A stretch of DNA of 64,000 nt from Chromatiales bacterium (lineage in GTDB: Bacteria > Pseudomonadota > Gammaproteobacteria > Steroidobacterales > GCA-2729495), in NCBI GenBank assembly GCA_024234935.1, contig JACKNI010000007.1, forward strand, positions 11,454 through 75,453, given 5' to 3'. How positions within the stretch are numbered: the first letter of the stretch is position 1; each line of letters opens with the position of its first letter. The notes under the pieces were generated by a model that made no database searches, was not told where the DNA came from, and saw nothing but the letters and a program-made list of their open reading frames with translations. Position numbers and translations under genes: made by a program. Shown piece after piece: positions 26,197-60,700 of this stretch.

Positions 26197-26248
26197 GTGC
26201 TGCCGTGAGCAGCAGGCCGCCAGACAATAGGACAGGGAGTCGCTAACC

Positions 26249-39348: not shown

Positions 39349-41739
39349 TCAGTGACCGGCGCGATATTCCTTTGCGCTGCGGAACTGCAGCGCTTCAAGC
39401 GGTGTAGCCTGATACGACTGCGCGATGCGTTCGGCCGGCGGTGTGCCATACAGTGTCGTGCGCTGTACCGGGCGACGGCCGATGCTTTCGATCAGCGCAT
39501 CCATGCGCTCCGGTGACAATTCCTGCCCGAAGGCTGCACCTGCTGCACGAGAGATGCTTTCGTTCATCAGTGTGCCGCCCAGGTCGTTGGCACCGGCGTT
39601 GAGGATGCGCGCCGCACCTTCTTCGCCGAGTTTTGCCCAGCTCACCTGGATGTTGTGCAGCACCGGACCGAGCACGAGCCGGGCGATGCCATGCATCAGC
39701 ATGGTTTCACGCCAGGTCGGGCCGGGGCGCGCCAGGCCGCGACGGTAAACCGGCGCTTCCATATGCACGAAGGGCAGCGGCACGAATTCGGTGAAACCAC
39801 CGGTTTCGACCTGCAGGTCGCGCAGGCCGAGCAGGTGTCGCGCCCAGTGTCGTGTCGTTTCGAGGTGGCCGAACATGATCGTGGAAGTCGTGCGCAGGCC
39901 GAGTGCGTGCGCTGTGCGCATCACACCAAACCAGGCGGCGGTATTCACCTTGTCCGGGCAGATATAGCGTCGCACCTCGTCGTCTAGAATCTCGGCGGCC
40001 GTGCCGGGCAGCGTGCCGAGGCCGGCCGCCTTGAGCTGCCGTAAAAAGGTGTCGAGCGGAATCCCCAGCGTCTTGGCACCCTGCGTGACTTCGAGCGGCG
40101 AGAAAGCATGCACGTGTATGTCTGGTGCGGCCTCCTTTACGGCATGCAGCACGTCGAGGTAGGTCTGCCCGGTGAAGGCCGGATGGATGCCACCCTGCAG
40201 GCATACTTCCGTTGCACCGCGTTGCCAGGCTTCTTCAGTGCGTCGCGCGACCTCGCTCATGTCGAGTACATAGGGTGCGCCGCGCAGGTCTTCGTGGGTC
40301 TTGCCCTTGGAGAAGGCGCAGAAGCTGCACTTGTAGGTACAGAGGTTGGTGTAGTTGATGTTGCGGTTGACCACGTAGCTGATCGTGTCGCCGCAGCTTT
40401 CCGCGCGGGCCTCGTCGGCGAGCTGCAGCAGATGCTCGCAGTCGGACCCGCGCAGTGAAAACAGATGCGTGACCTCGTCTTCGCTGAGGCGCTCGCCCTG
40501 GCGTGCGCGCTCCATCAGCTGCACTGCCGGCGAGTCCGGTCGCCGGAGGGTGGTACCCGATGCAGCAACTGGCGGTGGCGCCAGTCCCGCGCCGGGTGAC
40601 CAGTCATCGGTACGGGCGAGGCCGCTTGCATCGGCGTGTTTCAGGACGCTGGCGACAAGTCCCGGGTGCAGCCACTCCTTGCGCTGTTCAATGTAGTGCG
40701 GATAGATCGTGAGCCGCGGCACGAGCGTCTTGCCGGTCGCACGGGTCTGCTCCGCAAGGCTGTCCAGATGTGGCCAGGGGGATTCAGGGTTCACGTGATC
40801 CGGCGTGACCGGCGAAACGCCACCCCAGTCGTTGCAGCCGGCCGCGATGATCGCAGCGAGCCGGCCAGCGTTGAGGTTGGGTGGTGTCTGCAGGCTCATT
40901 GCAGCACCGAAGACATGCCGTGCCATGGCGATGGTCCACAGCAGTTCCTCAACGGGCGGTGCCGGCGCCTTTGCCATCTTCGTGCCCGGCTTCGGCACGA
41001 AGTTCTGCAGGATCAGTTCCTGCAGATGACCGTGCTCGGCATGCAGGTCGCGCAGTGCGAGCAGGCTCAGCAGGCGCTCCTCGCGTGTTTCACCGATGCC
41101 GATCAGCAGGCCAGAGGTGAGCGGTACGCGAGCCTGGCCCGCAGCGCGTATCGACAGCAGCCGGACGGTGGGCGCCTTGTCCGGAGAGCCGAAGTGCGGT
41201 CCGCCACGCTGCGTGAGGCGCGATGCCGCCGATTCCAGCATGATGCCCATCGACGGAGCCACTTCGCGCAGGCTGCGGAATTCCTCGTATGACATTACGC
41301 CGGCATTCAGGTGCGGCAGCAGCCCGGTTTCCCGGCGTACCAGTTCCGCCATCGCCCGCAGATAGTCGAGCGTGGACGCAAACCCCAGCGTGGCGAGGGC
41401 CTCGCGGGCTGCGCGATAACGCAGTTCCGGTTTGTCGCCGAGCGTGAAGAGCGCTTCATGACAGCCCGCGGCCTGTCCGGCACGGGCGATGGCAAGTACC
41501 TCTTCCGCTGTCAGGTAGACGTTCGTCAGTCGCCGCGGCGTTTTGGCGTAGGTGCAGTAGTGACAGACATCGCGGCACAGTTCTGTCAGCGGGATGAAGA
41601 CCTTCCGCGAGCAGGTGACGATATCGCCGTGCCCCGCATCGCGCAGCGCAGCTGCTGACGCCATCAGTTCAGGCAGCGGTGACTCGCCGAGCTTCAGCAG
41701 CTCCGGCAGTTCGGGATGCGCAGCGGCCGGTGTTTTCAA
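39349..41739 (-). CDS. fbiC: FO synthase FbiC (fused CofG + CofH radical-SAM domains)
   Basis: 796 aa with two radical-SAM cysteine triads, CRDVCHYC and CTYKCSFC. TTG start overlaps the cofC stop (TTGA). Confidence 0.9.
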   Translation of the reverse strand: MKTPAAAHPELPELLKLGESPLPELMASAAALRDAGHGDIVTCSRKVFIPLTELCRDVCHYCTYAKTPRRLTNVYLTAEEVLAIARAGQAAGCHEALFTLGDKPELRYRAAREALATLGFASTLDYLRAMAELVRRETGLLPHLNAGVMSYEEFRSLREVAPSMGIMLESAASRLTQRGGPHFGSPDKAPTVRLLSIRAAGQARVPLTSGLLIGIGETREERLLSLLALRDLHAEHGHLQELILQNFVPKPGTKMAKAPAPPVEELLWTIAMARHVFGAAMSLQTPPNLNAGRLAAIIAAGCNDWGGVSPVTPDHVNPESPWPHLDSLAEQTRATGKTLVPRLTIYPHYIEQRKEWLHPGLVASVLKHADASGLARTDDWSPGAGLAPPPVAASGTTLRRPDSPAVQLMERARQGERLSEDEVTHLFSLRGSDCEHLLQLADEARAESCGDTISYVVNRNINYTNLCTYKCSFCAFSKGKTHEDLRGAPYVLDMSEVARRTEEAWQRGATEVCLQGGIHPAFTGQTYLDVLHAVKEAAPDIHVHAFSPLEVTQGAKTLGIPLDTFLRQLKAAGLGTLPGTAAEILDDEVRRYICPDKVNTAAWFGVMRTAHALGLRTTSTIMFGHLETTRHWARHLLGLRDLQVETGGFTEFVPLPFVHMEAPVYRRGLARPGPTWRETMLMHGIARLVLGPVLHNIQVSWAKLGEEGAARILNAGANDLGGTLMNESISRAAGAAFGQELSPERMDALIESIGRRPVQRTTLYGTPPAERIAQSYQATPLEALQFRSAKEYRAGH

Positions 41740-42410
41740 GAATCTGTCGCCCTTTGTTGTCGTCTGAGGCGGTCGCGGATGCCGCTGGACTTCAGCCAGG
41801 CCAGCGTGGCACAGGCAATGCGCTGTTCCAGCAGCCAGTGAACATCATCCGGCGTGTCGATGTCACGTGCAAATCCGGCCAGTTCAGTATGCCGTGCCGG
41901 TATCCCCCTGGCGCGGGCGGCTTCCAGATGCCGCTTTGCGCTATCGGGTCCATACAGAAAGGGAATGGCCGTTGGCGGACTGAGCAACAGCGCATTGGTG
42001 CCGCCGTCCCGGGCGGCGGGGCACAGGCTGATGCCTTCCGTGTGACTTTCCAGCAGCCGGGTGACATCAGCGGCAGAGAGCGTGGGCAGGTCGGCGGGCA
42101 GCACCAGCAGATGACGCACGCCCTTTGCGGCCAGTCCGGCAGCAGCATCGCCGAGTGCCTTCCGGTAGTCATCGCCGGGCGGTTCGGGCAGCAGCTGTGC
42201 GCCACTGCCCGCGCTGAGCGCAGCGAGCTGCGGCTCGTTGCCGAGCAGGCTGATGCCGCTGATCAGGGGTGTGGCACCGAGGGCGCGCAGCACATCGAGC
42301 AGCATCTGCGCGGCAAGCTTTGCGCATTCCTCGCGGGTGAGCAAGCCATCAAGCCGCGTCTTGGCACGGGCGAAAGGCTTGACCGGTACCAGTGCCCAGG
42401 CGCCCGTCAT
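41736..42410 (-). CDS. cofC: 2-phospho-L-lactate / PEP guanylyltransferase (CofC/FbiD)
   Basis: 224 aa: WALVPVKPFARAKTRL...LLVLPADLPTLSAADV...DGGTNALLL (MobA-like nucleotidyltransferase fold). Confidence 0.8.
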   Translation of the reverse strand: MTGAWALVPVKPFARAKTRLDGLLTREECAKLAAQMLLDVLRALGATPLISGISLLGNEPQLAALSAGSGAQLLPEPPGDDYRKALGDAAAGLAAKGVRHLLVLPADLPTLSAADVTRLLESHTEGISLCPAARDGGTNALLLSPPTAIPFLYGPDSAKRHLEAARARGIPARHTELAGFARDIDTPDDVHWLLEQRIACATLAWLKSSGIRDRLRRQQRATDS

Positions 42411-42413
42411 GAT

Positions 42414-43376
42414 TCAGAGTGTGGCCGCAAAGCCGAGCGCGAAGCTGGCAAGTTTCAGCCGGTCGTCCAGCGTGTGCATGACGGTCTGTGTCGCGGCCAC
42501 CGCGATGCCGGCATCGATGATCGCTGCTGCTTCGCCGGCGTCGGTCTGGTCGAGGATGAAGCCGCCGAGCAGGTCGCGATAGTGATGCGCCACCGCCTGC
42601 GCCGAGGGCCGGAGGCCGAGTTCCGTCATGATCTTCGCGGTCGGCCCCTTCAGTGCCTGGCCACCGACGATCGGTGACACGGCGACGACCGGCGCGTGTG
42701 CCGAGCGTACCGCGGCGCGGATTGACGGAATGGCGAGTATCGGGTCGATGCTGAGCCAGGGGTTTGAGGGGGCGATGAAGATCGCTGCAAGATCGGGATC
42801 TGTCAGCGTTGCGGCGAGCGCGGCAGCGGGCGGGGCCGCGCTGGCACCCTGATAATGAATCGCTTTCACGCGTGGTTCGGCACGCTGGCGCACGAAGTAG
42901 TCCTGGAAGCCAAGGGTGGCGGGGCCGGCGTTGGTTTCGCAGTCGAGCACGGTGCGCACCGGCAGGTCGGACATCGGCAGGATCCGGGTTCTGACGCCGA
43001 GCTGCGCACACAGGTGTTGTGTGACATCGCTCAGGCTCCGGCCGGCAGCCAGCAGCCGCGTGCGTTCCAGGTGCGTGGCGAGGTCGCGGTCGCCGAGCCG
43101 GAACCAGGTCTCCGCGCCGAGCGCCTCGAGTCCTTCCATGCACGACCAGCTTTCATCGCGGAGGCCCCAGCCGGTGGTCTCGTTGACGACACCGGCTAGC
43201 GTGTACATCAGCGTGTCCAGATCCGGCGAAATCGCGAGACCGAGATGGCTGAAGTCGTCGCCGGTGTTGGCGATGATGGTCAGCTGATCCGCATCGAGCG
43301 TGCGCACCAGTCCAAGTGCCAGCTTGGCACCGCCGACGCCGCCGGCAAGCAGTACATAACGGGACTTTGCGCTCAC
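42414..43376 (-). CDS. cofD: 2-phospho-L-lactate transferase (CofD/FbiA)
   Basis: 320 aa: YVLLAGGVGGAKLALGL...IIANTGDDFSHLGLAISPDLDTLMYTLAG...IAPSNPWLSIDPIL. Confidence 0.9.
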   Translation of the reverse strand: MSAKSRYVLLAGGVGGAKLALGLVRTLDADQLTIIANTGDDFSHLGLAISPDLDTLMYTLAGVVNETTGWGLRDESWSCMEGLEALGAETWFRLGDRDLATHLERTRLLAAGRSLSDVTQHLCAQLGVRTRILPMSDLPVRTVLDCETNAGPATLGFQDYFVRQRAEPRVKAIHYQGASAAPPAAALAATLTDPDLAAIFIAPSNPWLSIDPILAIPSIRAAVRSAHAPVVAVSPIVGGQALKGPTAKIMTELGLRPSAQAVAHHYRDLLGGFILDQTDAGEAAAIIDAGIAVAATQTVMHTLDDRLKLASFALGFAATL

Positions 43377-44134
43377 CGGAACAGGTCTTCGTCGGCAGGC
43401 CGCAGTGCGTCGCGCGCGGTTTGTCCCGATTCGGTACAGGCTCCCGCGCCGCGGACCAGAACCAGCGGTGTGCCTTCGGCCGCTTCGCCCATCACCAGCA
43501 CGGCCGTCGCCGCGATGCTGTCGGCCACTGCCACTTCGCTCACCTGCAGCGTTCTGCCGAACATGTCGGGCTGGCCGCGCAGATCGTTGAGCGCCTTGAT
43601 GCCGGCGCAGCCGATCGCGATACCCACGGTGCCGAGCCGCCAGGCGCGGCCGATGCTGTCGGTGATGATCAGTCCGAGCGCGACGCCGAATTCCTTCTGC
43701 AGTGCTGCGCGCAGACCTGCCGCCGAAGCGTCGGGATCTTCGGGCAGCAACAGCGCGGTCTCGTCGCTGTCTTCGAGGTTGGACCGGTCGATGCCGGCGT
43801 TGGCCAGCACGACGCCGGTGCGGTGTTCGACGATGATCACCCCGGGCGAGACGCGGATCACCGAGCGCGATTCGCGCAGGATCAGCTCGACGACGCGCGG
43901 ATCCTTGTTGGCGCGTGAGGCGATGTCCTCCGCTTCGGCCGAAGGCCTTACCGTATCGAGCCGCACGCTGCGGCCCTCGGCCTTGGACACGATCTTCTGT
44001 GCGACGGCGATGAGGTCGCCGGCCAGCGGCTTTACGCCGCCTGCGCGCAGTGCGGCACTGATCAGCGCGGCCAGATCGTCACCGGGCTGTACCAGCGGTA
44101 CGCCCGGAATGCGCATGAAGCTGAGCCCGTTCAC
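43373..44134 (-). CDS. cofE: coenzyme F420-0:L-glutamate ligase (CofE, single-domain form)
   Basis: 253 aa: GDLIAVAQKIVSKAEGR...LANAGIDRSN...IITDSIGRAWRLGTVGIAIG. No C-terminal nitroreductase-like extension. 4-nt overlap with cofD. Confidence 0.85.
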   Translation of the reverse strand: MNGLSFMRIPGVPLVQPGDDLAALISAALRAGGVKPLAGDLIAVAQKIVSKAEGRSVRLDTVRPSAEAEDIASRANKDPRVVELILRESRSVIRVSPGVIIVEHRTGVVLANAGIDRSNLEDSDETALLLPEDPDASAAGLRAALQKEFGVALGLIITDSIGRAWRLGTVGIAIGCAGIKALNDLRGQPDMFGRTLQVSEVAVADSIAATAVLVMGEAAEGTPLVLVRGAGACTESGQTARDALRPADEDLFR

Positions 44135-44140
44135 GGACGC

Positions 44141-44821
44141 TCAGCTGGCGTCGTCAGCGATGCCGGTAATGCGTATGCCCGTATGCAGTCCGCCATAGCG
44201 CTTGTTCATGAAGATCAGCACCGACGTGAGCGCTTCGGCCGCCGCCGCATTCTCCAGTGAACCCGCATGCCAGGCGCGCAGCCCGGCAGCCCTGGCGAGG
44301 CCCACCACGACTTCGCGGGCCTCCGCCTTGTTGCCGGTGACCAGCACGTCGCAATCAAGAGCGTCATCGCTCTGCATCGAGTCAGCCGAGACATTATGAA
44401 AGGCTGCGACGACAGTCGTTTGTTCGCCGACCAGTTGCTGGGCGATGAGCGCGGCGCAGCCTTCAGGCGGCAGCTGCACGCGGGCGACCCGGGGTGGAAC
44501 CAGCGGTACCGTGGTATCGACGAGTATCTTGCCCGGCAGCGCAGCGCGGATTTCTCCCAGCGTCGGTCGCTGGTGGCTGAAAGGTACGGTGAGGACAACC
44601 ACGTTGCCCTCGCGGGCAGCTTCGAGATTGGACAGGCCGCGGACATTGGCACCGGGAAAGGCCTTGCGCAGCTCGCCAGCCGCCGCTTCGGCCTTGACCG
44701 CATCCCGCGAACCGATGATCACCGGAATGCCGGCCTGGGCCCAGCGACGGGCCAGCCCGCCGCCCAGCGCGCCGGTGCCGCCCACGATGGTGATTACGCC
44801 GAAGCGGCTGTCATTGACCAT
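44141..44821 (-). CDS. fno: NADPH-dependent F420 reductase (Fno/NpdG)
   Basis: ORF 44141-44899; ATG at 44821 gives [40 protein letters not shown] (Rossmann GxGxxG) ...[14 protein letters not shown]... Confidence 0.78.
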
Positions 44822-45023
44822 TGACTTGAACTCGTTGCTGCAACCCGGGGGCAGGCATGGTACCGAGCCGCTGCAGAGGGCACAAATGGCGGCTGGCATG
44901 GTCGCGGCTGGCAGGGCAAAATGGCGCCCTCAGGCTGCCCGGCCACCGGTCCCAGGCTCGCTGCGTATAACTGAAACCGAACATCCGCGGGCAAACCGGC
45001 CGCGACTACAAATAAAGAGAGCT

Positions 45024-45398
45024 ATGGAGATCTTCAAGGAGTTTATCTTCGAGGCGGCGCACCGCCTGCCCAACGTGCCTGCCGGCCACAAGTGCAGCCG
45101 GCTGCACGGCCATTCGTGGCGCGGGGCGATCTATGTCGAGGGGCCGGTCGATCCGCATGCCGGCTGGGTGATGGACTTCGGTGAAATCAAGCAGAAGTTT
45201 TCGCCCGTCTACGACATCCTCGACCATCATTATCTGAACGATGTGCCGGGTCTTGAGAATCCGACCAGCGAGGTGGTCGCACGCTGGATCTGGCAGCAAC
45301 TGAAACCGGTACTGCCCCTGTTGTCGAAGGTCATCGTGCATGAGACCTGTACGAGCGGTGCGATCTATCGGGGTGAGGACTGCGAGGCCGGTGGCTGA
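45024..45398 (+). CDS. queD: 6-carboxy-5,6,7,8-tetrahydropterin synthase QueD
   Basis: The last 124 aa of ORF 44445-45398 ([32 protein letters not shown]...[18 protein letters not shown]...[13 protein letters not shown]) are very close to E. coli QueD, including the CxxxHGH and zinc-binding His residues. Confidence 0.9.
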
Positions 45399-45837
45399 CG
45401 AGACGCTGATGCGCGCGGCGCTCGCGCTGGCGCGTCGCGGGCTGCTTGCCGGTGAAGCGCCGGTCGGTGCCTGCATCGCGCAGGACGGGCGGGTGATTGC
45501 CAGCGCGCACAGCGCCGTGGCCGGTGGTCCCGACGCAAGCGCGCATGCCGAGATTCTCGCCATCCGTGCCGCGTGCCGCAGTCTGCGCAGCGCGGCGCTT
45601 GCCGGCTGCGAGTTGTATGTCAGCGTTGAACCCTGTGCCATGTGTCTTGCCGCCTGTCACTACGCCGGGATTGACCAGGTGTTTTTTGCTGCCAGTTTGC
45701 AGGACATGCAGGCGGTCACCGGCCACGAACTGGGTGCGCCGGTACCTCTGTCGATCCGGTTGCACGGCGGTGTGCTCGGTGATGAAGCGCGCGCCATGCT
45801 GGCCGAGTGGGCAGCACAGCGGCAGGTGCGGGTGTAG
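45391..45837 (+). CDS. CMP/dCMP-type zinc deaminase (TadA / guanine deaminase-like)
   Basis: ORF 45340-45837. The likely start is GTG 45391 (overlaps the queD stop) or ATG 45409. HAE...PCAMC zinc signature ([10 protein letters not shown]...[13 protein letters not shown]). Confidence 0.72.
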
Positions 45838-46607
45838 CTGTGGCCGCTGTCTACGACGCCTTCGCCCGCGACTATCAGCGCAGCAAGGCCTCACCGCTGC
45901 GCGCGGCCATCGAAAGCTGGACCATCGATCGCCTGCTCGGTGATATCCGGGGATCCGCGATCTTCGATGCAGGCTGCGGCGACGGCTTTCATGCCCGGCG
46001 ACTGATGGCAAGGGGCGCAGGCCGCATAGCCGGCGTGGACGTTTCGGCGGCGATGATCCGGCTCGCACGCGAGGAGGAGAGCCGGGAGCCGCTGGGCATC
46101 CTGTACCAGTGCTGTGCGGTCGAGGACTTGCCGGAGCTGCCCTGTGCCGGTTACGGAGCAAGCGGTTTCGACATCGTGCTGGCTGCCTATCTGCTGCACT
46201 ACGCGCCATCGGTCGAGGTGCTCGCCCGCATGTGCCAGCGGCTTGCGAACGTACTGAAGCCCGGCGGTCGTCTCGTCGCCCTCGTCGAGAATCCGGACCA
46301 GACGGTGGCCGACTACGCCGGCTATGCGCCCTACGGCTTTGACAAGGTCGCGGCGGAGCCGCGTGCCGAAGCCAGCCGGATCCGCTACTCGCTGGTAGCC
46401 GGGCGGCAGATGATCCGCTTTGATACCTGGTACTACTCGCGCGACAGCTACGAGCGTGTGCTGCGCGACGCCGGCTTCAGCGCGATCGCATGGCACCCGC
46501 TGGAACTCGACCCTGATGCCGGGTCTGCCGGCTACTACGCTGACTATCTGCGTAACCCGCCGGTACTGGGCCTGACAGCCGATTTCCCCGGGATGCGGCG
46601 ATCATGA
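45807..46607 (+). CDS. class I SAM-dependent methyltransferase
   Basis: 266 aa (start uncertain: ATG 45807 or GTG 45843). Motif I IFDAGCGDGFHARRL; post-I RIAGVDVS; LKPGGRLVAL. Its stop overlaps the NRPS start (ATGA at 46604-46607). Confidence 0.75.
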   Translation: MGSTAAGAGVAVAAVYDAFARDYQRSKASPLRAAIESWTIDRLLGDIRGSAIFDAGCGDGFHARRLMARGAGRIAGVDVSAAMIRLAREEESREPLGILYQCCAVEDLPELPCAGYGASGFDIVLAAYLLHYAPSVEVLARMCQRLANVLKPGGRLVALVENPDQTVADYAGYAPYGFDKVAAEPRAEASRIRYSLVAGRQMIRFDTWYYSRDSYERVLRDAGFSAIAWHPLELDPDAGSAGYYADYLRNPPVLGLTADFPGMRRS

Positions 46608-49585
46608 GTACGCTGTTGCGCACACCGCTGCCGCAGTCCGATGCGCCGGATGCATGCCTGTCGCTCAGCCTGCTGGAACGCCTCGCCGCCCACGTGCAGC
46701 TGCGGCCCGACGCGCCGGCAATCGTCTGTGGCGAACAACAGCTGGCTTATGCAGCGCTTGATGCTGCGGCCAACCGGCTTGCGCATCGCCTGCAGGATCT
46801 CGGCGTTGCCCGCGATGTGCCAGTCGGCATCTGTCTCGAGCCCGGAACCGAGCTGCTGGTTGCGATGCTCGCCGTGCTGAAGGCCGGTGGCGCTTACTTG
46901 CCGCTGGATCCGGCCTGGCCTCGCGAACGCCTGCAGCAGATGCTGGGTGTCGTGAATCCGGCGGTGCTGATCAGCTGTGCCCGCCTGCGCGAGCGTTGCC
47001 CGGCCGGCATGCATGAGCTGCTTGATCTCGATCAGGAGCACGCGCGGATTGCGGCATGCAGTGCTGCGGATCCGGCAGTGGAGATCGTTCCGGAGCAGCT
47101 CTGCTACCTGATGTTCACTTCCGGTTCCGGCGGCGCGCCCAAGTGCGTGATGGTCACGCATGGCAATCTCGCCGGGCTGTTTCCGCCGCTCTGCGCGGCG
47201 CTCGAGTTCGGTTCCGATGATGTCTGGAGCTGGTTTCATTCCGCTTCCTTCGGCTTCTCGGTCTGGGAGATCCACGGTGCGCTGCTGCACGGTGGCTGCC
47301 TGCAGGTGGTGCCCGAAGTGGTCCGCAATGCACCCGCTGCACTCGGTGCCTGGATTGCCGAGCGGGGTGTGACGGTCTTCAGCCAGACGCCGTCAGCCCT
47401 GCGCCGGCTGCTCGGCGTGGCACCTTTTCATCAGGCGATCGCCGGCAGCCGGTTGCGTTATCTCGCGCTCAGTGGCGAGGCGCTGCGGCCGGAAGACATC
47501 GCCACCTGGCATCACTACCAGGATGCAGAACGACAACCCTCTGCGCCACGACTGCTCAGCACCTACGCGCTGACCGAGACCGCTGGCCAGGTAACCTTGC
47601 GCATTTACGGCGCAGCTGATTCCGGCAGCGAAGCAGTGCGCAATATCGGCCAGCCCCTCGGCGGTCGTCACGTGCTGGTACTGGATGCTGCCGGCCGGCC
47701 CGTCGCTCCGGGCGAAGCGGGCGAACTGTGGGTGGCCGGTACCTGTGTCGCGGCGGGCTATTTCGGCGACGCATCGCTCACCGCACAGCGCTTCACCACG
47801 CATGTCGTGGCCGGGCAGGGATTGCTGCGCGGTTACCGGACCGGTGACCAGGTGCGGCTGCGCGCTGATGGCGCACTCGAGTATCTGGGCCGTGCCGATA
47901 TGCAGCTCAAGTATCGGGGCTACCGTATCGAGCCTGCGGAAATCGAAGCCGCATTGCGTGGCCACCCGGGCGTACGCGATGCAGCCGTGGCACTGCAGAG
48001 CGATGTGGCCGGCAATCCGCGCCTCACGGCGCACATCGTCAGCGCGGAAACAAAGGCGGATGCAACCGGACTGGAGTTCTGGCCTTCGCTGGGCGCGTAT
48101 GAGGTATACGACGAGTTCCTGTACGGACTGATGAACGCCGAACCGGTGCGGCTGAACGCTTATCGCGCGGCTTTCGCCGGCAGCGTGCCTGGCAAGGCTG
48201 TACTCGATATAGGTACCGGCAGCGATGCTGTGCTGGCGCGCCTGTGTATCGAAGCCGGTGCCCGTCACGTGTATGCGGTTGAAATACTCGAGGCGGCAGC
48301 ACGGCAGGCAGCTGAACTGGTGCGCACGCTGGGGCTCGAAGATCGCATCACCGTTTTGCACGGTGATATTGCAGCCATGGTGCTGCCGGAGCCGGTCGAA
48401 GTGTGTACCCAGGGCATCATCGGCAATATCGGCAGTGCCGATGGCATCGTGGCGGTCTGGAATGCCGCACGCCGCAATTTTGCTGCGGGCTGCGTGCCGG
48501 TCCCGTCCCGTTGCGTCACCCGGCTTGCGCTGATGGAGTTGCCTGCCGCAGCGCGCGAGCGGCCACGTTTTTCGCCGCTTGCCGCCGACTACGTGCGGCG
48601 CATGTTCATGCTGACCGGAAAACCCTTCGATGTGCGTCTCTGCGTGCGCAACGTCAAAGCTGCGGACCTGCTGACCGCAGGTACCGATTTCGAAGTGCTG
48701 GAGTTCCACGGGCCGTTGCCGCCCGGCCACATCGGCAGTGCCGAACTCGAAGTGCGACGTGACGGATACCTGGATGGCTGCCTGCTGTGGACCGTGGTGT
48801 CTGCCGATGCCGTACACACGGTGGACTATCTGCAGGAGCAGCGTGCCTGGCTGCCGGTGTTCGTGCCGATGGCAGAAACCGGCATCACCGTGCATCGTGG
48901 CGATGTCGTGCGCATCAGCTGGCGGGCTTTCAACGAGTCAGATCCGCGCCATCCGGATTACGAGTTGTGCGTGTCCCTGGGCGCGGAGGGCGACAGGCCG
49001 GCGCGCGAGTTCAGGCAGGTGACGCGCCATTCAGGCACCGAGGCGGGTGCGATGCGACTGCATCGCGAACTGCTGGCGGATGTCGGTAGCGAGGATCAGG
49101 TGGTGTCGGTCGACGCCCTGCGAGCCTGGCTCGGCGATCGCGTACCCGAATACATGGTGCCGCAGAGCTGGCTGTTCCTGCCGGAGCTGCCGCTGACGCC
49201 GGGCGGAAAACTCGACCGCGAGGCGCTGCCCGCACCGGGCCGATATCGGCCGCGGCTTGCTGCTGCAGCCATCGCCCCGCGCAATGCCGTGGAGAATGCT
49301 GTTGCCGGACTCTGGGCGCGGGCGCTGGGCCTGGAAGCGATTGGCGTCGAGGACAACTTTTTTGATCTGGGTGGTGACTCGATCACCGCGGTGCAACTCA
49401 CCACGACGACCCAGCGCTGGCTGGATGCGCCGGTACCGCTCGCAGCCCTGTTCGATGCGCCTACGGTGGCCGCGATGTGCCGCCATCTCGAAGCGGCATA
49501 TGCAGCACCGCTTGCGGCCGCACTCGGGCGCGGTGGGGCTCATATGCAGCAAGGCTCGATGGATCGCGAGCACGGCGAGCTATGA
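46604..49585 (+). CDS. NRPS loading protein: interrupted adenylation domain A(MT) + carrier domain
   Basis: 993 aa. A3 FTSGSGGAPK; A4 SFGFSVWE (47249-47269); A7 YRTGD; A8 GRADMQLKYRGYRIEPAEIE. An insert of about 340 aa follows, then A9/A10 VPEYMVP...PLTPGGKLDRE. T domain FFDLGGDSITAVQL (Ser codon 49379-49381). Confidence 0.9.
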   Translation: MSTLLRTPLPQSDAPDACLSLSLLERLAAHVQLRPDAPAIVCGEQQLAYAALDAAANRLAHRLQDLGVARDVPVGICLEPGTELLVAMLAVLKAGGAYLPLDPAWPRERLQQMLGVVNPAVLISCARLRERCPAGMHELLDLDQEHARIAACSAADPAVEIVPEQLCYLMFTSGSGGAPKCVMVTHGNLAGLFPPLCAALEFGSDDVWSWFHSASFGFSVWEIHGALLHGGCLQVVPEVVRNAPAALGAWIAERGVTVFSQTPSALRRLLGVAPFHQAIAGSRLRYLALSGEALRPEDIATWHHYQDAERQPSAPRLLSTYALTETAGQVTLRIYGAADSGSEAVRNIGQPLGGRHVLVLDAAGRPVAPGEAGELWVAGTCVAAGYFGDASLTAQRFTTHVVAGQGLLRGYRTGDQVRLRADGALEYLGRADMQLKYRGYRIEPAEIEAALRGHPGVRDAAVALQSDVAGNPRLTAHIVSAETKADATGLEFWPSLGAYEVYDEFLYGLMNAEPVRLNAYRAAFAGSVPGKAVLDIGTGSDAVLARLCIEAGARHVYAVEILEAAARQAAELVRTLGLEDRITVLHGDIAAMVLPEPVEVCTQGIIGNIGSADGIVAVWNAARRNFAAGCVPVPSRCVTRLALMELPAAARERPRFSPLAADYVRRMFMLTGKPFDVRLCVRNVKAADLLTAGTDFEVLEFHGPLPPGHIGSAELEVRRDGYLDGCLLWTVVSADAVHTVDYLQEQRAWLPVFVPMAETGITVHRGDVVRISWRAFNESDPRHPDYELCVSLGAEGDRPAREFRQVTRHSGTEAGAMRLHRELLADVGSEDQVVSVDALRAWLGDRVPEYMVPQSWLFLPELPLTPGGKLDREALPAPGRYRPRLAAAAIAPRNAVENAVAGLWARALGLEAIGVEDNFFDLGGDSITAVQLTTTTQRWLDAPVPLAALFDAPTVAAMCRHLEAAYAAPLAAALGRGGAHMQQGSMDREHGEL
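48065..49093 (+). other. PRMT-fold SAM methyltransferase domain inserted between A8 and A9 of the loading A domain
   Basis: aa ~488-830: YDEFLYGLMNAEPVRLNAYRAAFAGSVPGKAVLDIGTGSDAVLARLCIEAGARHVYAVEILEAAARQAAELVRTLGLEDRITVLHGDIAAMVLPEPVEV. This parallels the type I PRMT N-terminal helix, motif I and post-I. It is followed by a C-terminal portion of beta-barrel length. Confidence 0.6.
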
Positions 49586-49746
49586 CCATCGCGGAGCTGC
49601 TCGCGGCAACGCGCGCGGCGGGAATCACGCTGCGGGTCGAGCGCGGGCGTCTGCTCTTTGACGCGCCGGCTGGCGCGCTGACCCCGGAACTGCGTCAGGC
49701 CCTCAGCGAACGCAAGCCGGAGCTGCTGGACTATTTCCACAACGGG
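49582..49746 (+). other. TubC-N-like N-terminal docking domain
   Basis: MTIAELLAATRAAGITLRVERGRLLFDAPAGALTPELRQALSERKPELLDYF fits the pattern of TubC-type docking domains (LLxxLxxxGVxLxxxGxxLxxxAPxGxLTxELxxxLxxxKxELL). Confidence 0.6.
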
Positions 49747-52700
49747 AACCCGGCGCCACTCGGCTTTGCACAGCAGAGCCTCTGGTTCCTGCATGAACTC
49801 TATCCGCAGGACACCGGCGCCAGCGAGCAGTTTGCGATCCGTATCGATGGTCCGCTCGATCCGACGCTGCTCGCGCGGGCCTGGCATGCCCTGCTTGCGC
49901 GTCATTCGATACTGCGTACGACTTTCAGTGAAAAGGACGGCCAGGTCTGGCAGGTACCGGCAGCACCGCAGCTGAATGGTCCGCCGCTGTTGCAGGTCAA
50001 TGTCGGTACGGTGCAGTCCGGTCTGCTGGAAATCGCTGCCACAGCGTTGCGTGAGCCCTTCGACCTGCGGCGTGGTCCGCTGCTGAAGCCGCAACTCTGC
50101 CGTATGGCCGACGAGCAGCACGTACTGCTGGTCACGGCACATCACATCATCGCTGACGGGCTGTCGGTTCCGGTCATTCGCGCGGAGCTGGTTGCGCTCT
50201 ATCAGGCACTGCTCGCGGGGAAGCCATCACCGCTGCCACCGCTGCAGCTCGAGTATGCGGACGTGGCGCGTGCGCAGCTGCAGACCGATGCGCAGCATGA
50301 AACCGGCGTGCTGCAGCGCTGGCAGGAGATACTCGCATCGCCGCCGCCTGCGGCCCTGCATGCGCTGGTGCGTCCGCGGCGGGGCACCAAAATCTCCCGG
50401 CGCTCTGCCTTTAGCCTGGAGGCGTCGCTGGCCGACAGGCTGCGTCGACTCGCACGTGACAGCGGCACCACTCCGTATGTCGTGCTGCTGGCCGCGTTTC
50501 GTGTACTGCTGGTCCGTCTGACCGGGCAGCACGATCTGGTGATCGGTACGCCGATGACCCTGCGGGATACGCCCGAGCAGCGCGAGATGATCGGCTGCCT
50601 GGTGAACCCGGTTGCCTTGCGGACGCCGGTCGAACTGCAGGATTCATTTCGCAGTCACCTGTTGCGTGAGCGGGCAATGGTGCTCGAGGCCATGCAGTAC
50701 CGGAATGTGCCTTTTTCGCGGGTAGTGGCTGCCGTCAGCCCGGAGCGAAAACTGGATGAGCATCCGCTGTTCCAGATCCTGTTTTCATGGGAGACCGGTA
50801 TACAGCCGGAACCGGTGGTCATCGCCCCGGCTGATGCTGCGCCTGAGGTGCGCTTTTGCCTCCTGTCCCTGCCGGCCGAACGCGCTTCGTACTTTGACCT
50901 CGAGTGTCTGCTGCGCGATGCGGGTGAAGGGCAGCCGATGGACGGCTATTTCGCCTGGTCGACGGCTGTGCTTGAGGACCTGGTCGGCGCACAACTGGCG
51001 CAGATATACGCAGTGCTGCTTGCTGCAATCATCGACCGTCCGGATGCGCCGATGGCCGGGCTCAGCCTGCTGTCCGAAGTCGCACGCCGGAAGATCCTTC
51101 ATGACTGGAACGATACGGCTGCGCCGTACCCGGAGCGGACATCGTTGCATGACGCCTTTCTTGAGCAGGCCCGTCGCGTGCCGGAGGCGCCGGCGCTGCA
51201 CACCACCACAGGGCTCTGGAGCTACGCCCGGCTTGAGGAGCGCAGCGCAGAGCTGGCGGCCGACCTGACCGCCTGTGGTCTGCAGCCCGGCATGCCGGTG
51301 GGCCTGTGCATGCCGCGCTCGGCCGAAGCTGTCGTTGCGCTGCTCGGTATCCTGCGTGCGGGCGGCGTGATCGTCCCGCTGGATCCGGCCTGGCCGCTGG
51401 CACGTCTGCAGTTTGTCGCCGCCGATGCGGGCGTGCAGATCGTGCTTCGCGACCTGCATCCCTTCCGGCCGGATGCGCCGCTGAAGCCGGCCGTACCGGC
51501 GCCAGCCGACGCTGCAGTGATCCTCTATACCTCGGGCTCCACGGGCATGCCGAAAGGCGCGTTGACCACGCATGCTTCGGCGGTCAATCGTTGCCACTGG
51601 ATGTGGCAGGGCTACGGCTTCGGTGCGGAGGACGTGTTTGCGCTGCGCACCAGTTTCGGGTTTATCGATTCGCTGTGGGAGATCTTCGGCGCGCTCGGTC
51701 ACGGTATCCCGCTGGTGATCGTGCCGGACGATATTGCCGGCGATGCGCTGCGCCTGCCGGACTTCCTGCGCGCTCATGCGGTCACGCACCTGGTGCTCGT
51801 GCCCTCGCTGCTGCGCGCACTGCTCGATGCAATGCCGGCGGGAGGGCTGCCCGCGCTCAGCAGTTGCATCAGCAGCGGCGAGCCGCTGGATCCGGCGCTC
51901 GCGCGGCGTTTCCGCTCGGCTTTTCCCGGCGCGCGGCTGCTGAACACCTATGGCACCTCGGAGATCTGGGATGCCACCTGTCATGAAGTGACCGGGTTGT
52001 CCGCGGCGACGGAGCGTGTGCCGATCGGCCGGCCGGTTGCCAATGCGAGCGTCCATGTACTCGATGCCAACGCCGAGCTGCTGCCGCCGGGCATTCCCGG
52101 CGAGCTGTACGTTGGCGGCATCGGGGTCGGACCCGGCTACTGGCAGCGGCCGGAACTGACAGCGGAGAAGTTCATCACGCTCCGTCTCGCCACGGATGGC
52201 GAGCCGCTACGTCTGTATCGCAGTGGCGATCGCGCGCGCTGGCTTGCTGACGGCCAGATTGAGTGTCTGGGCCGGCTCGATGCCCAGTTCAAGCTGCGCG
52301 GGCTGCGCATCGAGCCGGGCGAGATCGAGAGTGCGCTCACTGCCCATCCGGCCGTCGCCGGCGCCATCGTCACAATCTGCGGAGAGGGCGAGGCCGCGCG
52401 CCTCGTCGCCGGCGTGGTGCGCGCTGCACAGGCGGATACCGGGTCCGATGCAGAACTGTGGTCAGGATTGCGCACACATCTGCGCCGCTTGTTGCCGGCG
52501 CACATGCTGCCGGCCGGCTGGCAATGCCTCGATCAGTTGCCGCTGACGCCGAGCGGAAAGCTGGACCGGCGTGCGTTTGCGGCGCTGTACGGCAACGGGA
52601 GCCGTGTCGAAGTACCGGCCGCCGGTGCAGGGCCGCGTACCGACACCGAGCGCGAGCTTGCAGCGATGTGGTCGGAGGTGTTCGGTGGCAGACACATCGG

Positions 52701-55700
52701 CGTCGATGAGAACTTCTTCGATGCAGGTGGCCACTCGTTGCTCGCCACGCGCATCGTCAGCCGGATCCGCACCCGCCATGCGCAAGACTTCACGCTGCGC
52801 GAGATGTTTGCGGCACCGACGATCGCAGCGCTGGCGGCGGCGCTCGACAGCCGGCGGCAGTCGCAAGCCGCCGCGGGCCTGGTCGCGGCAGCACATGACG
52901 ATGTCGTGCCGCTGTCCTTTGCCCAGGAGCGGCTCTGGTTCCTGGACCAGCTTGATCCCGGCAGTCCGGCTTACAACATCGCCTGGACGGTGTGTCTGTC
53001 CGGAGCGCTGGACCGCGGTGCGCTACGCGCCGCACTCGACTTTCTCATCGCGCGCCACGAAGCCTTGCGCAGCCGCTTTCCGGCTGTGGCTGGCCGACCG
53101 CAGCTGTGCATCGATGAGCCCGGGTCGCTCGGCCTGGTCGAGCTCGATATCGCCGGGGAAACGGAATTGCAGGCAGCGCTATTGCGCCATGCGCGGGCGC
53201 CTTTCGTGCTGGCTACCGGCCCGCTGCTGCGCGCGGTACTCGTGCATCGCTCGGCGGATGAACACCTGCTGATGCTCGCCATGCAGCACATCATCACGGA
53301 TGCCACCTCCAACCATGTGCTTTTTGAAGAGCTGGTGACGAGCTATGCGGCATTCGCCGCTGGCAGGGAGCCGGCACTGCCGCCGCCGGCGATCAGGTAT
53401 GCGGACTATGCGCTCTGGCAGCGGCGGCGACCGCCTGATGCGGGGCTGGCCGCGGACCTCGCCTGGTGGCGCGCACAACTGGCGGGCATGCCGGCGGCAC
53501 TCGAGTTGCCGACTGATTATCCGCGGCCCGCCGAGCAGCAGTTCCGCGGTGCCTGGGTACGCCGCACCTTGCCGTCCGGACTGGTGCGGGCGTTGCGGGC
53601 ACTGGCCCGCGAGCAGCAGGGCACCTTATATATGGTGTTGCTTGCTGCCTTCGACGTGCTGCTGTCCCGCTACAGCGGCAGCGAGGACATTGTCGTCGGT
53701 ACGCCGGTAGAGGGGCGGACCGAGCGTTCCCTGGAGCAGCTGGTCGGACTTTTCATCAACACGCTGGTGATGCGCACGGATCTCAGTGGTGACCCAACCT
53801 TTACGGAGTTGCTGCAGCGTGTGCGCACGGTGACGCTCGAGGCCCAGGCGCACCAGGATCTGCCCTTCGAGAAACTCGTCGAAGCGCTGCGTCCCGCGCG
53901 CAGTCTGAGCCGTGCGCCGCTGTTCCAGGTCATGTTCAACCTGATCCGTATGCCGGAAGAGCAACAACAGGTGGCGGGGCTGACGTTCCGTCTCGACCGG
54001 CTGGTAGACCAGGGCGTGTCGAGTTTCGATCTCACGCTGACGGCGAGTGAGCAGGGCGAGCAGGTCGGGCTGATCTTCGAATACGCGACCGATCTGTTCG
54101 CAGTCCGGACCGTCGAGCAGCTTGCCGATTCCTGTCTGTGTCTGCTCCAGGGGATCGTCGAGTGCCCGGCACAGGCCATATCGCGATTGCCGTTGCTCGA
54201 TGAAGCCGGCCGGCAGCACCTGCTCGACGACTTCAATCCGCCGGTCCTTGCGGCGGGCTTTGTGCCGGTGCATCAGACCGTGGCCGGCAATGCGCTGCGC
54301 TGGCCGGATGCGCCGGCGGTTTCGCTGGGTGGAATATCCCTGCGCTATGGCGAACTCGAAGCGCGTGCCAACCGGCTTGCACACTTCCTGCTCGCGCGGG
54401 GTTTGCCAGCCGGCGCGCGGATTGGCATCTGCCTGTCGCGCGAGCCGTCCTTGCTGGTCGCGGTGCTGGCGGTGCTGAAAGCCGGTGCAGCCTATGTGCC
54501 GCTGGATCCCGCTTACCCGCCCGCACGACTGGCGGCGATGGCAGACGACGCCGATCTCGCTCTGCTGCTCGTCGATATGAAAACCCGTGCCTGCTTTGCG
54601 GTCGACGATGCGCGCCTGCTGCAGCCTGATGCGTTGCAGGCAGAAACAGACCGCTGTGCCGCGAGTCCACCGGTGCTCCGCGTGAGTGCCGATGACCTGG
54701 CCTACCTGCTCTACACCTCCGGCTCTACCGGCCGGCCGAAGGCCGTGATGGTCACGCATGGCAATCTTGCCAGCGCACTGTCGGCATGGCTTGAGCTCTA
54801 TACCCTGCAGCCGGGCGAATCCCATCTGCAAATGGCGAGCGTGGCATTCGATGTCTTCAGCGGCGACTGGGTCCGTGCGCTGGGTTCGGGTGGCCGCCTG
54901 GTGCTGTGTCCGCGCGAGACGCTGCTCGAGCCGTCGGCGCTGCTGGCCGTGCTGACCCACGAGAAAATTGCAGTTGCCGAGTTCGTGCCGGCGGTGATCC
55001 GGCTGCTGCTTGCGCATGCAGACGCACAGGACCTGCAGTTGCCGCCGCTGCGTCTGCTGATCGTCGGTTCTGACCTGTGGTTTGCTGCCGAGGCCGCTGC
55101 GCTGCGCGCCCGCTGCACGTCTGGCACCCGCGTGTTCAATTCCTACGGCGTCGCCGAGGCAACGATCGACAGCGCCTGCCTGGAAGTCGGTGAGGATATG
55201 CCTGCCGCCGGCGCAGTGCCGGTTGGCAGGCCGCTAGCGAATGCGCGGCTCTACGTGGTCGACGCGCGCGGCGATATTGTCCCGGCCGGCGTGCCCGGTG
55301 AGCTGTGCATCGGTGGTGCCGGTGTGGCGCAAGGGTACTTCGGTCAGCCGGAACTCAGCGCGGAGAAATTCATTGCCGATCCTTTTGCCGGTGTGCCGGG
55401 TGCGCGTCTGTACCGTAGCGGCGACCGCGCACGCTGGCGCCACGATGGCAATCTGGAGTTGCTTGGCCGCGCCGACTTCCAGTTCAAGCTGCGCGGCTTT
55501 CGCATCGAACCGGCTGAAGTCGAGGCACGCCTGACAGAACATCCGGCCATCCGCCACGCTGTCGTCGGCCGACGCGAAACAGCGGCTGGCGATGCATGCC
55601 TGGTGGCCTGGATCGTGCCCGGCGATGCGGCTGTGCCGGTGCCAGACCTGCGGCTGGCCTTGCAGTCCAGTTTGCCTGAGCATCTCATACCCAACATTTT

Positions 55701-57768: not shown

Positions 57769-60700
57769 GTACCGCGCACTACGTCTTTCCGGCTTCGTTC
57801 GCCCAGCAGCGGCTGTGGTTTCTGGACCAGCTCGAAGGTGCGAGCGCGGTCTACAACCTGAAGATGGCACTGCGACTCTCCGGTCGGCTGGATCACGACA
57901 GCCTGCAGCGCGCCGTCGATGCGGTCGTGGCGAGACATGAATCCTTGCGCACCAGCTTTGCAACGCGCGGCGTCGATGCCGTGCAGCGGGTCGCGAGCCA
58001 GCTTGAAGTACTGGTGCAGACGGCTGAACTGCATGGTGCCAGCGATACCGTGCTGGCGGCAAAGCTGAATGAGCTGGGATCAACGAGTTTTGATCTGCAG
58101 CGCGGGCCCTTGCTGCGTGTACACCTGCTGCGTCTCGATGCAGAGGCCACTGAACATGTGTTGCTGCTGGTGATGCACCATATCGTATCGGATGCCTGGT
58201 CAGCTGGCGTGCTGTACCGGGATCTTGCCGCGTATTACAGCGCTTTCAGTCGCGGCCTTGTTGCACAGCTGCCGGAACTCCCGGTGCAGTACGCCGACTT
58301 CGCGGTCTGGCAGCGCGACTGGCTTGCCGGTGCCGAACTCGAGCGGCAGATGGCTTTCTGGCGCGAGCATCTCGAGGGCGCGCCGCCGCTGCTCGAGCTG
58401 CCGACTGACCGGCCGCGTCCGGTGCTGCAGACCTACCGCGGCAACCGGTTCAGCCGCGCTGTACCCGCGGCGCTCAGCGCCCGGCTGCAGGCGCTCGCTG
58501 CAGAGGAGGGCGTGACGCTCTACATGTTGCTGTTTGCCGCATTCAACCTGCTGCTTGCGCGCTGGTCGGGTCAGTCGGACCTCGTGATCGGTACGCCGAT
58601 TGCGGGACGACGGCGCAGTGAACTCGAGGCGCTGATCGGCTGCTTTGCCAATACGCTTGCCATCCGCACCCGGCTGGAGGGCGCTGAAAGATTCAGCGAG
58701 CTGCTCGCGCGTGTACGCACTGCCACGCTCGGCGCCTTTTCACACCAGGAGCTGCCATTCGAAAAGCTGGTCGAGGTCCTGAAGCCGCCGCGCAATCTTT
58801 CGCACTCGCCGCTGTTCCAGGTGATGTTCATCCTGCAGAACACGCCCTGGGAAGCCGTGGAGTTCGGCGCGCTGGCAGTAAGGCCCGCGGAGATGGATGC
58901 GGCGGATACCGCAAAGTTTGAGCTCACCGTGTCGGTCTCGGAGTTCGAGTCGCAACTCTGGCTGGCGCTCGAGTACAACAGCGATATCTTCGACCGGGGC
59001 ACCATCGAGGGTCTTGCTGCGGGCTACGAGACGCTGCTGTCTGCGATCGTGGCCGATCCGTCTGCATCCCTGTCTGTGCTGCCGGTGCAGGCCGAAGCGG
59101 ACCGGCGACAGCTGCTCGACACGTGGAATGACTACGCTGCGCCCTATGACAGAAACTGCGGCGTCTGGTCGCTGTTTGCTGCCCGGGCGGCGCGCAGTCC
59201 CGGGTCTGTCGCCGCCGAAGCCGATGGTGTGGCGCTGACTTATGCGCAACTGCTCGACCGTGCGGAACAGCTGGCTGCGGCCCTGTACGCCCGCGGCGTG
59301 CGGCCCGGTCAGGCTGTGGCGATCTGCCTGGAGCGCGGCATCGACATGCTGGCGAGTGTGCTCGCGGTGTTGCGCATCGGCGCCCACTATGTGCCCCTGG
59401 ACACGGCGCATCCGTCCGCGCGGCTGGCGTTCATCCTCGAGGATTCCGGCGCCAGCATGCTGGTTGCCGCGCCTGCCCTGGCCGGGAGACTGGCGGATTT
59501 TCGCGGCACCGTGTTCGATCCCGGTACAGCCAGGTCCGGTTCGGTCAGCAGCATTCCGGCGTTCGCGCCGCTGTCCGGCGATGCCCTCGCTTACCTGATC
59601 TATACCTCCGGCTCGACTGGCCAGCCGAAAGGTGTGGCAGTCCCGCAGCAGGCGGTGCTGAATTTCCTGCACAGCATGGCGCGCACGCCGGGCCTCGCGA
59701 CGGATGACCGGCTGCTGGCAGTGACCACGCTGGCCTTCGATATCGCCGTGCTGGAACTCCTGCTGCCGCTTGCCGTCGGTGCAACGACGGTGATTGCCAT
59801 GCGCGATGAACTGGCCGATCCACAGTTGCTGATCCATCGTCTGGCGGGGTCGCGTATCTCCATGATGCAGGCGACGCCGGCACTGTGGCGCAACCTGGTC
59901 GCTGCCGGCTGGACCGGCCAGCCGGATCTGCGCATGCTCTGCGGCGGTGAGTCGCTGGATGCGGACCTGGCCTCTGCGCTGCTCGCACGCGGCGCTGACC
60001 TCTGGAACATGTATGGGCCAACCGAAACCACGGTCTGGTCCTGCTGCGCGCGGATCACGGCGGTTTCCTCAGCGCCGGTACCGGTGGGCCGGCCGATCGC
60101 CAACACGCGCTGCTATGTGCTGGACGCGCAGCGAGAGCCGGTGCCGCGAGGTGTACGCGGCGAGCTGTGGATCGGTGGCGATGGCGTGGCTTGCGGTTAT
60201 CACGCGCGGCCGGAACTCACGGCCGAGCGCTTCCTTGCCGATCCCTTTGCCGGTGTCCCTGCGCGCATGTACCGGACCGGTGACCGTGCACGCTGGCGCA
60301 GCGATGGCGGTCTGGAAATCCTTGGCCGCAGCGATTTCCAGCTCAAGCTGCGCGGCTTTCGCATCGAGCCGGGTGAAATCGAGGCGGCGCTACTTGCGCA
60401 TCCGGCCGTCAGCGCGGCGGTCGTGGTGCTGCGCGATTTTGCCGGCGATCCGCGGCTGGTTGCTTTCATGGTGCCGGCTGGCGCTGACGTCTCGGCCGGG
60501 TTGCTCGTGCGCCATCTGCGCGGCCGTCTGCCCGAATACATGGTGCCGTCTGAATTCGTCTGGCTGCCCGAACTGCCGCTGAACCCGAACGGCAAACTCG
60601 ACCGGGCTTCCTTGCCGGCCGTGTTGCCAACTGGTACCAGGGCAGACAGTGCTGATGCGCCGCTCTCGCCCCTTGAAGTCATGCTGTGCGAGCTGTTTGC

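Follow-up and report, generated by a model that had tools for sequence, protein, structure and literature searches.

A loading adenylation domain without Asp235 and with an embedded methyltransferase: a candidate pteridine-acid starter module in a gammaproteobacterial peptide synthetase cluster

Which starter unit does a nonribosomal peptide synthetase (NRPS) load when its first adenylation (A) domain has lost the residue that pairs with the alpha-amino group of an amino acid? The question is raised by a 64,000-nucleotide stretch of DNA from a Chromatiales bacterium (assembly GCA_024234935.1, contig JACKNI010000007.1, positions 11,454 to 75,453 of the forward strand; hereafter the window), which encodes a loading protein made of an A domain interrupted by a methyltransferase (MT) and followed by a carrier (T) domain, A(MT)-T. 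On the evidence of its sequence family and gene context, we think it likely that this loader is an active A domain that would adenylate a GTP-derived 6-carboxy-pteridine and load it onto its own carrier.

The loader belongs to the NRPS adenylation class of the ANL superfamily: it passes TIGR01733 with 387.5 bits (cut-off 317.4), core motifs A3 to A10 are present, including the A10 Lys, and Pfam places AMP-binding at residues 29-387 (3.8e-73), AMP-binding_C at 835-869 and PP-binding at 899-962, with the A8 motif at residues 429-443 and the A9-A10 subdomain at 835-869. Three independent alignments match Gly217 with Asp235, the acidic residue of the FD motif. In phmmer, the loader's S-F-G-F-S-V-W-E lies opposite F-D-x-S of both LgrA A domains; in BLASTP against the Thr domain of PvdD it lies opposite F-D-F-S-V-W-E, within an alignment of 327 residues that has only 6 gap positions; the third is a MAFFT alignment of 177 related A domains. 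The same ten-residue columns read D-F-W-N-I-G-M-V-H in PvdD, the established Thr code, and the column mapping is therefore sound. A preliminary description of this DNA had taken Asp235 to be Gly in the A4 block F-G-F-S-V-W-E, and all three alignments bear this out, none of them placing at 235 the Asp of an alpha-amino-acid-activating domain. The A4 block contains no Asp anywhere, including position 236, which excludes a one-residue shift of the beta-amino-acid type. Judged by these alignments, Asp235 is truly replaced in the loader, and a substrate that carries no basic alpha-amine would fit this loss, as had also been proposed.

The complete specificity code, G217-F218-W221-S260-A288-S290-T320-G328-Q329-K869, reads GFWSASTGQK. 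An earlier hand-derived version, G-F-W-S-L-L-T-G-Q-K, agrees with it at eight positions; at 299 and 301, where the loader has Ala and Ser, it gave Leu twice, neighbouring residues having been taken. We know of no amino-acid code that resembles GFWSASTGQK or its family form GFWS(A/V)STG(Q/N/R)K; the nearest, that for Thr, shares only positions 236, 239 and 517.

Conservation of these features was followed through 70 near-length homologues, 9 further ones and the A(MT) modules of 120 longer proteins, the last found by searching with the methyltransferase region alone; a contig search with the whole loader protein had returned two close relatives only. Position 235 is Gly in 122 of 122 family members, which are 40-92% identical, and the code is nearly fixed as G-F/Y-W/F-S-A/V-S-T/S-G-Q/N/R-K, well beyond what chance would produce. 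Counted where a sequence covers the residue, A7 Asp415 and A8 Lys436 and Arg441 are likewise present in 122 of 122. Since the code, the catalytic residues and the carrier Ser are all conserved, selection for one conserved substrate is indicated, and the pattern is what an active enzyme would show if its substrate were unusual and shared throughout the family. The core motifs had been called degenerate. The atypical forms, A3 FTSGSGGAPK and A5 STYALTE, are indeed present in the translation of 47114-47600, but the description goes too far. The A3 Gly (S-G-G for S-T-G) is found in 10 of 70 members, against Thr in 48, most members reading TSGSTGxPKG, and Lys180 is kept; this P-loop change is lineage-specific. 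The A5 sequence is a family-wide variant, Y-A-(I/L)-T-E, that retains the Thr-Glu pair. The altered A3 and A5 motifs might otherwise suggest that the A domain is catalytically dead and that its carrier is loaded in trans, a reading we find scarcely credible with the A3 change so restricted, the A7 Asp, A8 Lys/Arg and A10 Lys invariant, and the code fixed over 122 sequences.

The domain inserted between A8 and A9 has, by sequence, the fold of a protein arginine methyltransferase (PRMT): phmmer against PDB leads to PRMT6 at 7e-15, and the GxGxxA motif for S-adenosylmethionine (SAM) reads GTGSDA. The loader thus has the layout of interrupted-A-domain family 2b, with the methyltransferase (M) domain between a8 and a9 and a GxGxxA motif, but not its Tyr-type substrate code, since GFWSASTGQK is not DASTVAAVCK-like. 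Type III M domains are described as Tyr O-methyltransferases with a GxGxxA SAM motif (PMC8341866). At the place of the PRMT double-E loop, the loader carries TQGIIGNIGSADG. Gly235 modules read (T)-Q-G-I-I-G-N-I-G-S-A-D-G there, the first Glu being Gly and the second Asp, whereas Asp235/Tyr-type relatives retain both Glu in an S-E...E-G loop with PRMT double-E spacing. This bears on an earlier guess that the starter is a guanidino- or amino-acyl acid. A guanidino acid, methylated on its guanidine by the PRMT-like domain, would agree with the fold of the insert and with the missing alpha-amine-binding Asp; the Gly and Asp of the double-E loop speak against it, as do the neighbouring genes, among which we saw no amidinotransferase or other guanidino-acid enzyme and the conserved members are pterin enzymes. 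We therefore regard a guanidino starter as very unlikely, and found no specific support for the guess, which, pterin containing a cyclic guanidine, came near a pteridine only by accident. The broader expectation of a methylated, non-proteinogenic starter is upheld as probable.

The Gly235 modules are also set apart by position and descent. In the 120 longer proteins, the homologous M domain is hosted by 53 Gly235 and 55 Asp235 A domains. Every one of the 53 Gly235 modules comes first in its protein, and its M domain begins at residue 320-568; in most Asp235 hosts, the M domain lies beyond residue 900, in a later module of a multimodular protein. M domains of the Asp235 hosts are 36-45% identical to that of the loader, and their A domains have ordinary codes, most often DASTVAAVCK or DAATIAAVCK, which are of the Tyr type by comparison with the tabulated CepA Tyr code. 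In a FastTree phylogeny of the A cores (45 Gly235 domains, 54 Asp235 hosts and 42 C-A-T relatives, C being a condensation domain), the Gly235 domains form one clade with support 1.0, and the one sequence that seems not to belong there is a truncated member of the family, likewise with Gly. With midpoint rooting, the sister group is a PvdD-like, Thr-type DFW set and not the Tyr-type hosts. Because the tree samples sequences selected by similarity and has a midpoint root, this sister relation to DFW domains is tentative.

Evidence of a different kind comes from gene context. We compared the neighbourhoods of Gly235 modules at nine loci: the window, L001, the P0038 locus, L042, L004, L040/L041, L043, L044 and L045. 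Eight of the nine, which span at least four different gene contexts, have an adjacent QueD gene and a cytidine deaminase (CDA)-type deaminase that is either adjacent or fused. The first four, which come from this bacterial family or its close surroundings, have the whole arrangement in common, including a divergent F420 operon. In L004, QueD adjoins a fusion of the order A(MT)-T-deaminase-MT (P0084); in L040/L041 (labelled Porticoccaceae) and L043, QueD and the deaminase stand beside a stand-alone A(MT)-T-thioesterase (TE) protein with no other NRPS; and in L044 (labelled Phycisphaeraceae), QueD is directly upstream of an NRPS into which the deaminase is fused. All five deaminase-carrying fusions (P0084, P0168, P0173, P0175 and P0179) are Gly235 proteins. 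A control locus with an Asp235/Tyr-type module, from Puniceibacterium, has neither QueD nor the deaminase. The F420 genes are absent from L004, L040, L043, L044 and L045, and F420 or its precursors were rejected as the substrate; being confined to modules of this bacterial family, the F420 genes were not counted in the mechanism proposed below.

These neighbourhoods also bear on whether the starter could be an alpha-keto, alpha-hydroxy or other simple acid, with QueD, the deaminase and the methyltransferase acting elsewhere, in separate pteridine or queuosine synthesis. In its favour, keto-acid A domains typically have another residue in place of Asp235 (PMC10949194), the QueD of this genome is its housekeeping copy, and one Gly235 locus has no QueD nearby. 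Keto-acid modules, however, normally contain a ketoreductase (KR) domain and otherwise keep the code of the cognate amino acid; the loader has no KR domain, Pfam finding AMP-binding, methyltransferase and PP-binding only, and its code is unlike that of any amino acid familiar to us. A simple acid would also leave unexplained both the adjacency of QueD and the deaminase in at least four contexts and the A(MT)-T-deaminase-MT fusions. We consider this alternative unlikely.

The operon QueD passes the TIGR03367 equivalog cut-off and matches E. coli QueD (4NTM) at 2e-57, on which grounds it is an orthodox enzyme; it also has the CxxxHGH active site. The genome has no other PTPS-family gene, and the same holds for five complete relatives. 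A queC gene and a queE-like gene lie together on another contig (G000:C1:607999-609287), without queD. QueD must therefore also serve queuosine synthesis, and a single queD gene probably supplies both pathways, to queuosine and to the peptide. The deaminase matches TadA at 7.5e-24 and the guanine deaminase of B. subtilis (1WKQ) at 4.7e-20, and a better-scoring TadA is encoded elsewhere in the genome; these matches make it paralogous to TadA and to guanine deaminase, with a resemblance to guanine/guanosine deaminases. Another GTP-derived heteroaryl acid downstream of QueD has to be considered at this point, chiefly 7-carboxy-7-deazaguanine (CDG), the product of QueE, or its deaminated form. QueD is the first committed step towards CDG, the genome has both queE and queC, and CDG is a carboxylic acid without an alpha-amine whose 2-amino group could be removed by a guanine-deaminase-like enzyme. 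However, QueD alone accompanies the A(MT)T gene, no radical-SAM QueE gene being found beside it in any of the nine neighbourhoods, and the queE of this genome is on the other contig, with queC. CDG is accordingly an improbable starter.

For the 6-carboxy-pteridine that we favour, a route can be drawn from family membership and gene context, on which every step rests. FolE followed by QueD is a two-step route from GTP to 6-carboxy-5,6,7,8-tetrahydropterin (CPH4). The GTP cyclohydrolase I paralogue at the end of the cluster would convert GTP to dihydroneopterin triphosphate, which QueD would convert to CPH4. The A domain would then activate the C6 carboxylate of CPH4, or of an oxidized or deaminated form, and load it onto Ser926. 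Tailoring of the ring would fall to the two methyltransferases, the embedded PRMT-fold domain and the stand-alone enzyme, and to the CDA-type deaminase, which would turn a pterin into a lumazine (2-amino to 2-oxo). These reactions probably take place while the ring is carrier-bound, as the fusion order A(MT)-T-deaminase-MT suggests. Finally, the C domain of NRPS1, engaged through a TubC-type dock, would join the capped starter to a beta-Ala-like residue, giving a peptide with a methylated pterin or lumazine cap. Asp235 would be dispensable with such a substrate, because the sole nitrogen beside the carboxyl is ring N5, which is weakly basic, or no amine at all when the ring is aromatic. In the pocket, the small residues Gly217, Ala288, Ser290 and Gly328 would give a bicyclic ring room, Phe218 and Trp221 could stack on it, and Ser260, Thr320 and Gln329 could form hydrogen bonds.

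The genes of the cluster are collected in Table 1. They run in the order queD-deaminase-MT-A(MT)T-NRPS-NRPS and are followed by GTP cyclohydrolase I, and the upstream junctions overlap or nearly do so. The loader gene overlaps both its neighbours, its start sharing ATGA with the end of the methyltransferase gene upstream and its stop lying beyond the start of NRPS1. The loader tail beyond the carrier domain (49490-49582) probably docks onto the N-terminal TubC_N of NRPS1; some relatives have the counterparts of the loader and NRPS1 fused in one open frame of 3000-4200 aa. The elongation A-domain codes, all approximate, are IDWVISTDAK and DVGEIVSIDK in NRPS1, then DILQCGMVWK and DAQHVGG-AK; the first three we take to be beta-Ala-like (Asp shifted to 236), Orn-like and Gly-like, respectively. 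The code IDWVISTDAK is one residue off that derived by hand earlier. NRPS2 has no TE and extends about 28 aa beyond its last T domain. A stand-alone protein of the beta-lactamase/penicillin-binding protein (PBP) family lies beyond it and could, from its family, be a SurE-like trans-acting release or cyclization enzyme; an EamA exporter gene and a cytochrome-c-like gene lie between the two. The 2.7-Mb genome has three FolE copies, and an NRPS2-flanking FolE is also found in four of the five complete relatives.

Table 1. Features of the loading protein and the surrounding cluster (window coordinates unless prefixed)
Feature	Coordinates	Strand	Basis and remarks
F420 operon, divergent: fno, cofE, cofD, cofC, fbiC	39349-44899	-	Pfam and NCBIfam matches
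QueD, 6-carboxy-5,6,7,8-tetrahydropterin synthase	45024-45398	+	TIGR03367, 104.3 bits vs cut-off 89.25
CDA-fold zinc deaminase (HAE...PCxxC)	45340-45837	+	PDB matches; alternative GTG start 45391
Stand-alone class I SAM methyltransferase	45807-46607	+	Pfam Methyltransf_25, Methyltransf_11, 3e-17
Loading protein A(MT)-T, P0002, 993 aa	46604-49585	+	Pfam, NCBIfam
A3 motif FTSGSGGAPK	47114-47143	+	Translation
A4 block F-G-F-S-V-W-E	47249-47269	+	Gly217 codon 47252-47254 = position 235; Phe218 = 236; Trp221 = 239
Pocket residue Ser260 (278)	47381-47383	+	Mapping validated on PvdD Thr code
Pocket residue Ala288 (299)	47465-47467	+	Mapping validated on PvdD Thr code
Pocket residue Ser290 (301)	47471-47473	+	Mapping validated on PvdD Thr code
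A5 motif STYALTE	47558-47578	+	Within pocket-residue stretch 47381-47590
Pocket residue Thr320 (322)	47561-47563	+	Mapping validated on PvdD Thr code
Pocket residues Gly328/Gln329 (330/331)	47585-47590	+	Mapping validated on PvdD Thr code
Methyltransferase inserted between A8 and A9, residues ~492-835 (~345 residues)	48077-49108	+	Pfam boundaries, phmmer vs PDB
A10 catalytic Lys869 (position 517)	49208-49210	+	Kept in 117/117 relatives
Carrier (T) domain	49298-49489	+	Pfam PP-binding, 4.8e-16
Phosphopantetheine-attachment Ser926 in LGGDS	49379-49381	+	Kept in 116/116 relatives
NRPS1: TubC_N dock, then C-A-T-C-A-T-C-T	49477-57768	+	Pfam
NRPS2: C-A-T-C-A-T	57765-64000	+	Pfam; continues past window end
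GTP cyclohydrolase I (FolE) paralogue	G000:C7:75559-76161 (L020:559-1161)		Just past window, 26 bases after NRPS2 stop
Beta-lactamase/PBP-family protein, 383 aa, stand-alone	L020:3118-4269	-	~2.6 kb past NRPS2

Several observations from the genome and its relatives stand beside these. The 2.7-Mb genome has 17 luciferase-like oxidoreductase genes, likely F420-dependent, three of them no more than 20 kb upstream of the cluster (25144-27259 and 29585-30598), and in L001 one luciferase-like gene lies between fno and queD. The minimal QueD-deaminase-A(MT)-T-TE systems, which have no condensation domain (L040:3407-7795 and L043:7099-11603), would, from their domain content, load and methylate a pteridine acid and then release or transfer it alone. 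The Gly235 starters P0168, P0175, P0170 and P0178 have fused nitroreductase (PF00881) or sulfotransferase domains, which suggests further ring reduction or sulfation in Planctomycetota and Verrucomicrobiota. Searched with the methyltransferase region, 20 of the 21 sampled genomes of the window's GTDB family, in five genera, gave strong matches (E 1e-96 or better); the other 179 sampled genomes of the order gave weak, generic methyltransferase matches only. G016, a genome in this sample, gave a weak match, and no claim made here depends on it. The family consists of uncultured Gammaproteobacteria with small genomes, and its pteridine-capped peptide might be lineage-defining rather than an occasional secondary metabolite, with a core physiological role such as that of a cofactor, redox-active or metal-binding, linked to the divergent F420 operon; this seems to us rather doubtful. 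If it were so, carrier-tethered pteridine tailoring would be a new bacterial route to modified pterins or lumazines.

Should the loader activate a pteridine acid, bacteria would have a signature for this kind of starter: Gly235 and its code, an A8-M-A9 module at the N-terminus, and the presence of QueD and the deaminase close by or fused. Genomes of Gammaproteobacteria, Planctomycetota and Verrucomicrobiota, mostly uncultured, could then be mined for pteridine-capped peptides. The queuosine enzyme QueD would have been recruited as a natural-product supplier, and a PRMT-fold domain resembling Tyr O-methyltransferases would have been re-tooled for a heterocycle. Substrate predictors depend on the Stachelhaus code, and the code of this family fits no amino acid familiar to us.

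The closest functional parallel is fungal. In the plm cluster of Aspergillus flavipes, which makes penilumamide A, PlmA activates pterin-6-carboxylic acid, and a GTP cyclohydrolase I, the deaminase PlmD and the two methyltransferases PlmH and PlmI lead to a 1,3-dimethyl-lumazine cap (PMC10549243). The loader would resemble PlmA as an NRPS starter module for a pteridine-6-carboxylic acid, its cluster codes for these same kinds of enzyme, and the predicted cap matches the 1,3-dimethyl-lumazine-6-carboxamide of penilumamide. PlmA differs in having no embedded MT and in obtaining its acid through dihydroneopterin aldolase and oxidoreductases rather than QueD. A literature search for bacterial pteridine-loading NRPSs found nothing beyond this fungal example. 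PlmA also heads the points that weigh against a pteridine starter here: as the only characterized pterin-acid A domain, it keeps Asp235, and its code, DVMVLLMITK, shares only the terminal Lys with that of the loader. Given the Asp235 and the unrelated code of PlmA, the similarity would be convergent, an analogous function with no sign of common descent. Further, one Gly235 neighbourhood is an exception, L045 (Planctomycetales) having no QueD or deaminase within 8 kb, and within this bacterial family the position of QueD could be inherited synteny, a caveat that leaves the evidence from other lineages and from fusions unweakened. More generally, the case combines guilt by association with the loss of Asp235; the ring could be in the tetrahydro or the aromatic state, and deamination could come before or after methylation.

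Other A domains provide partial parallels. Aryl-acid enzymes of the DhbE/EntE type are stand-alone and have Asn at 235; the loader has Gly there and a fused T domain, and its nearest relatives are modular NRPS A domains. The alpha-keto-acid A domains of CesA, Vlm and StsA resemble it in having a non-acidic residue at 235, where their substrate lacks an alpha-amine. They differ in their A-KR-T organization, a usually aliphatic residue at 235 and an amino-acid-like code, in contrast to the Gly and the MT insertion of the loader. ThxA2 module 6, DidJ and VatN (families 2b/5b, type III M domains; PMC8341866) share the MT between a8 and a9 and the GxGxxA motif, but that class has Asp235, Tyr-type codes and the S-E...E-G loop, is mostly found in a later module and is assigned Tyr O-methylation. 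The loader's clade has Gly235 and a G...D loop, is always the first module, and by its A core groups, tentatively, with Thr-type DFW domains. It is these PvdD-type Thr domains (DFWNIGMVHK) that are the closest A-core relatives, with 42% identity and with the F-x-F-S-V-W-E block and positions 236 and 239 in common; they lack the inserted domain, and their code differs from that of the loader at seven of ten positions (D235G, N278S, I299A, G301S, M322T, V330G and H331Q).

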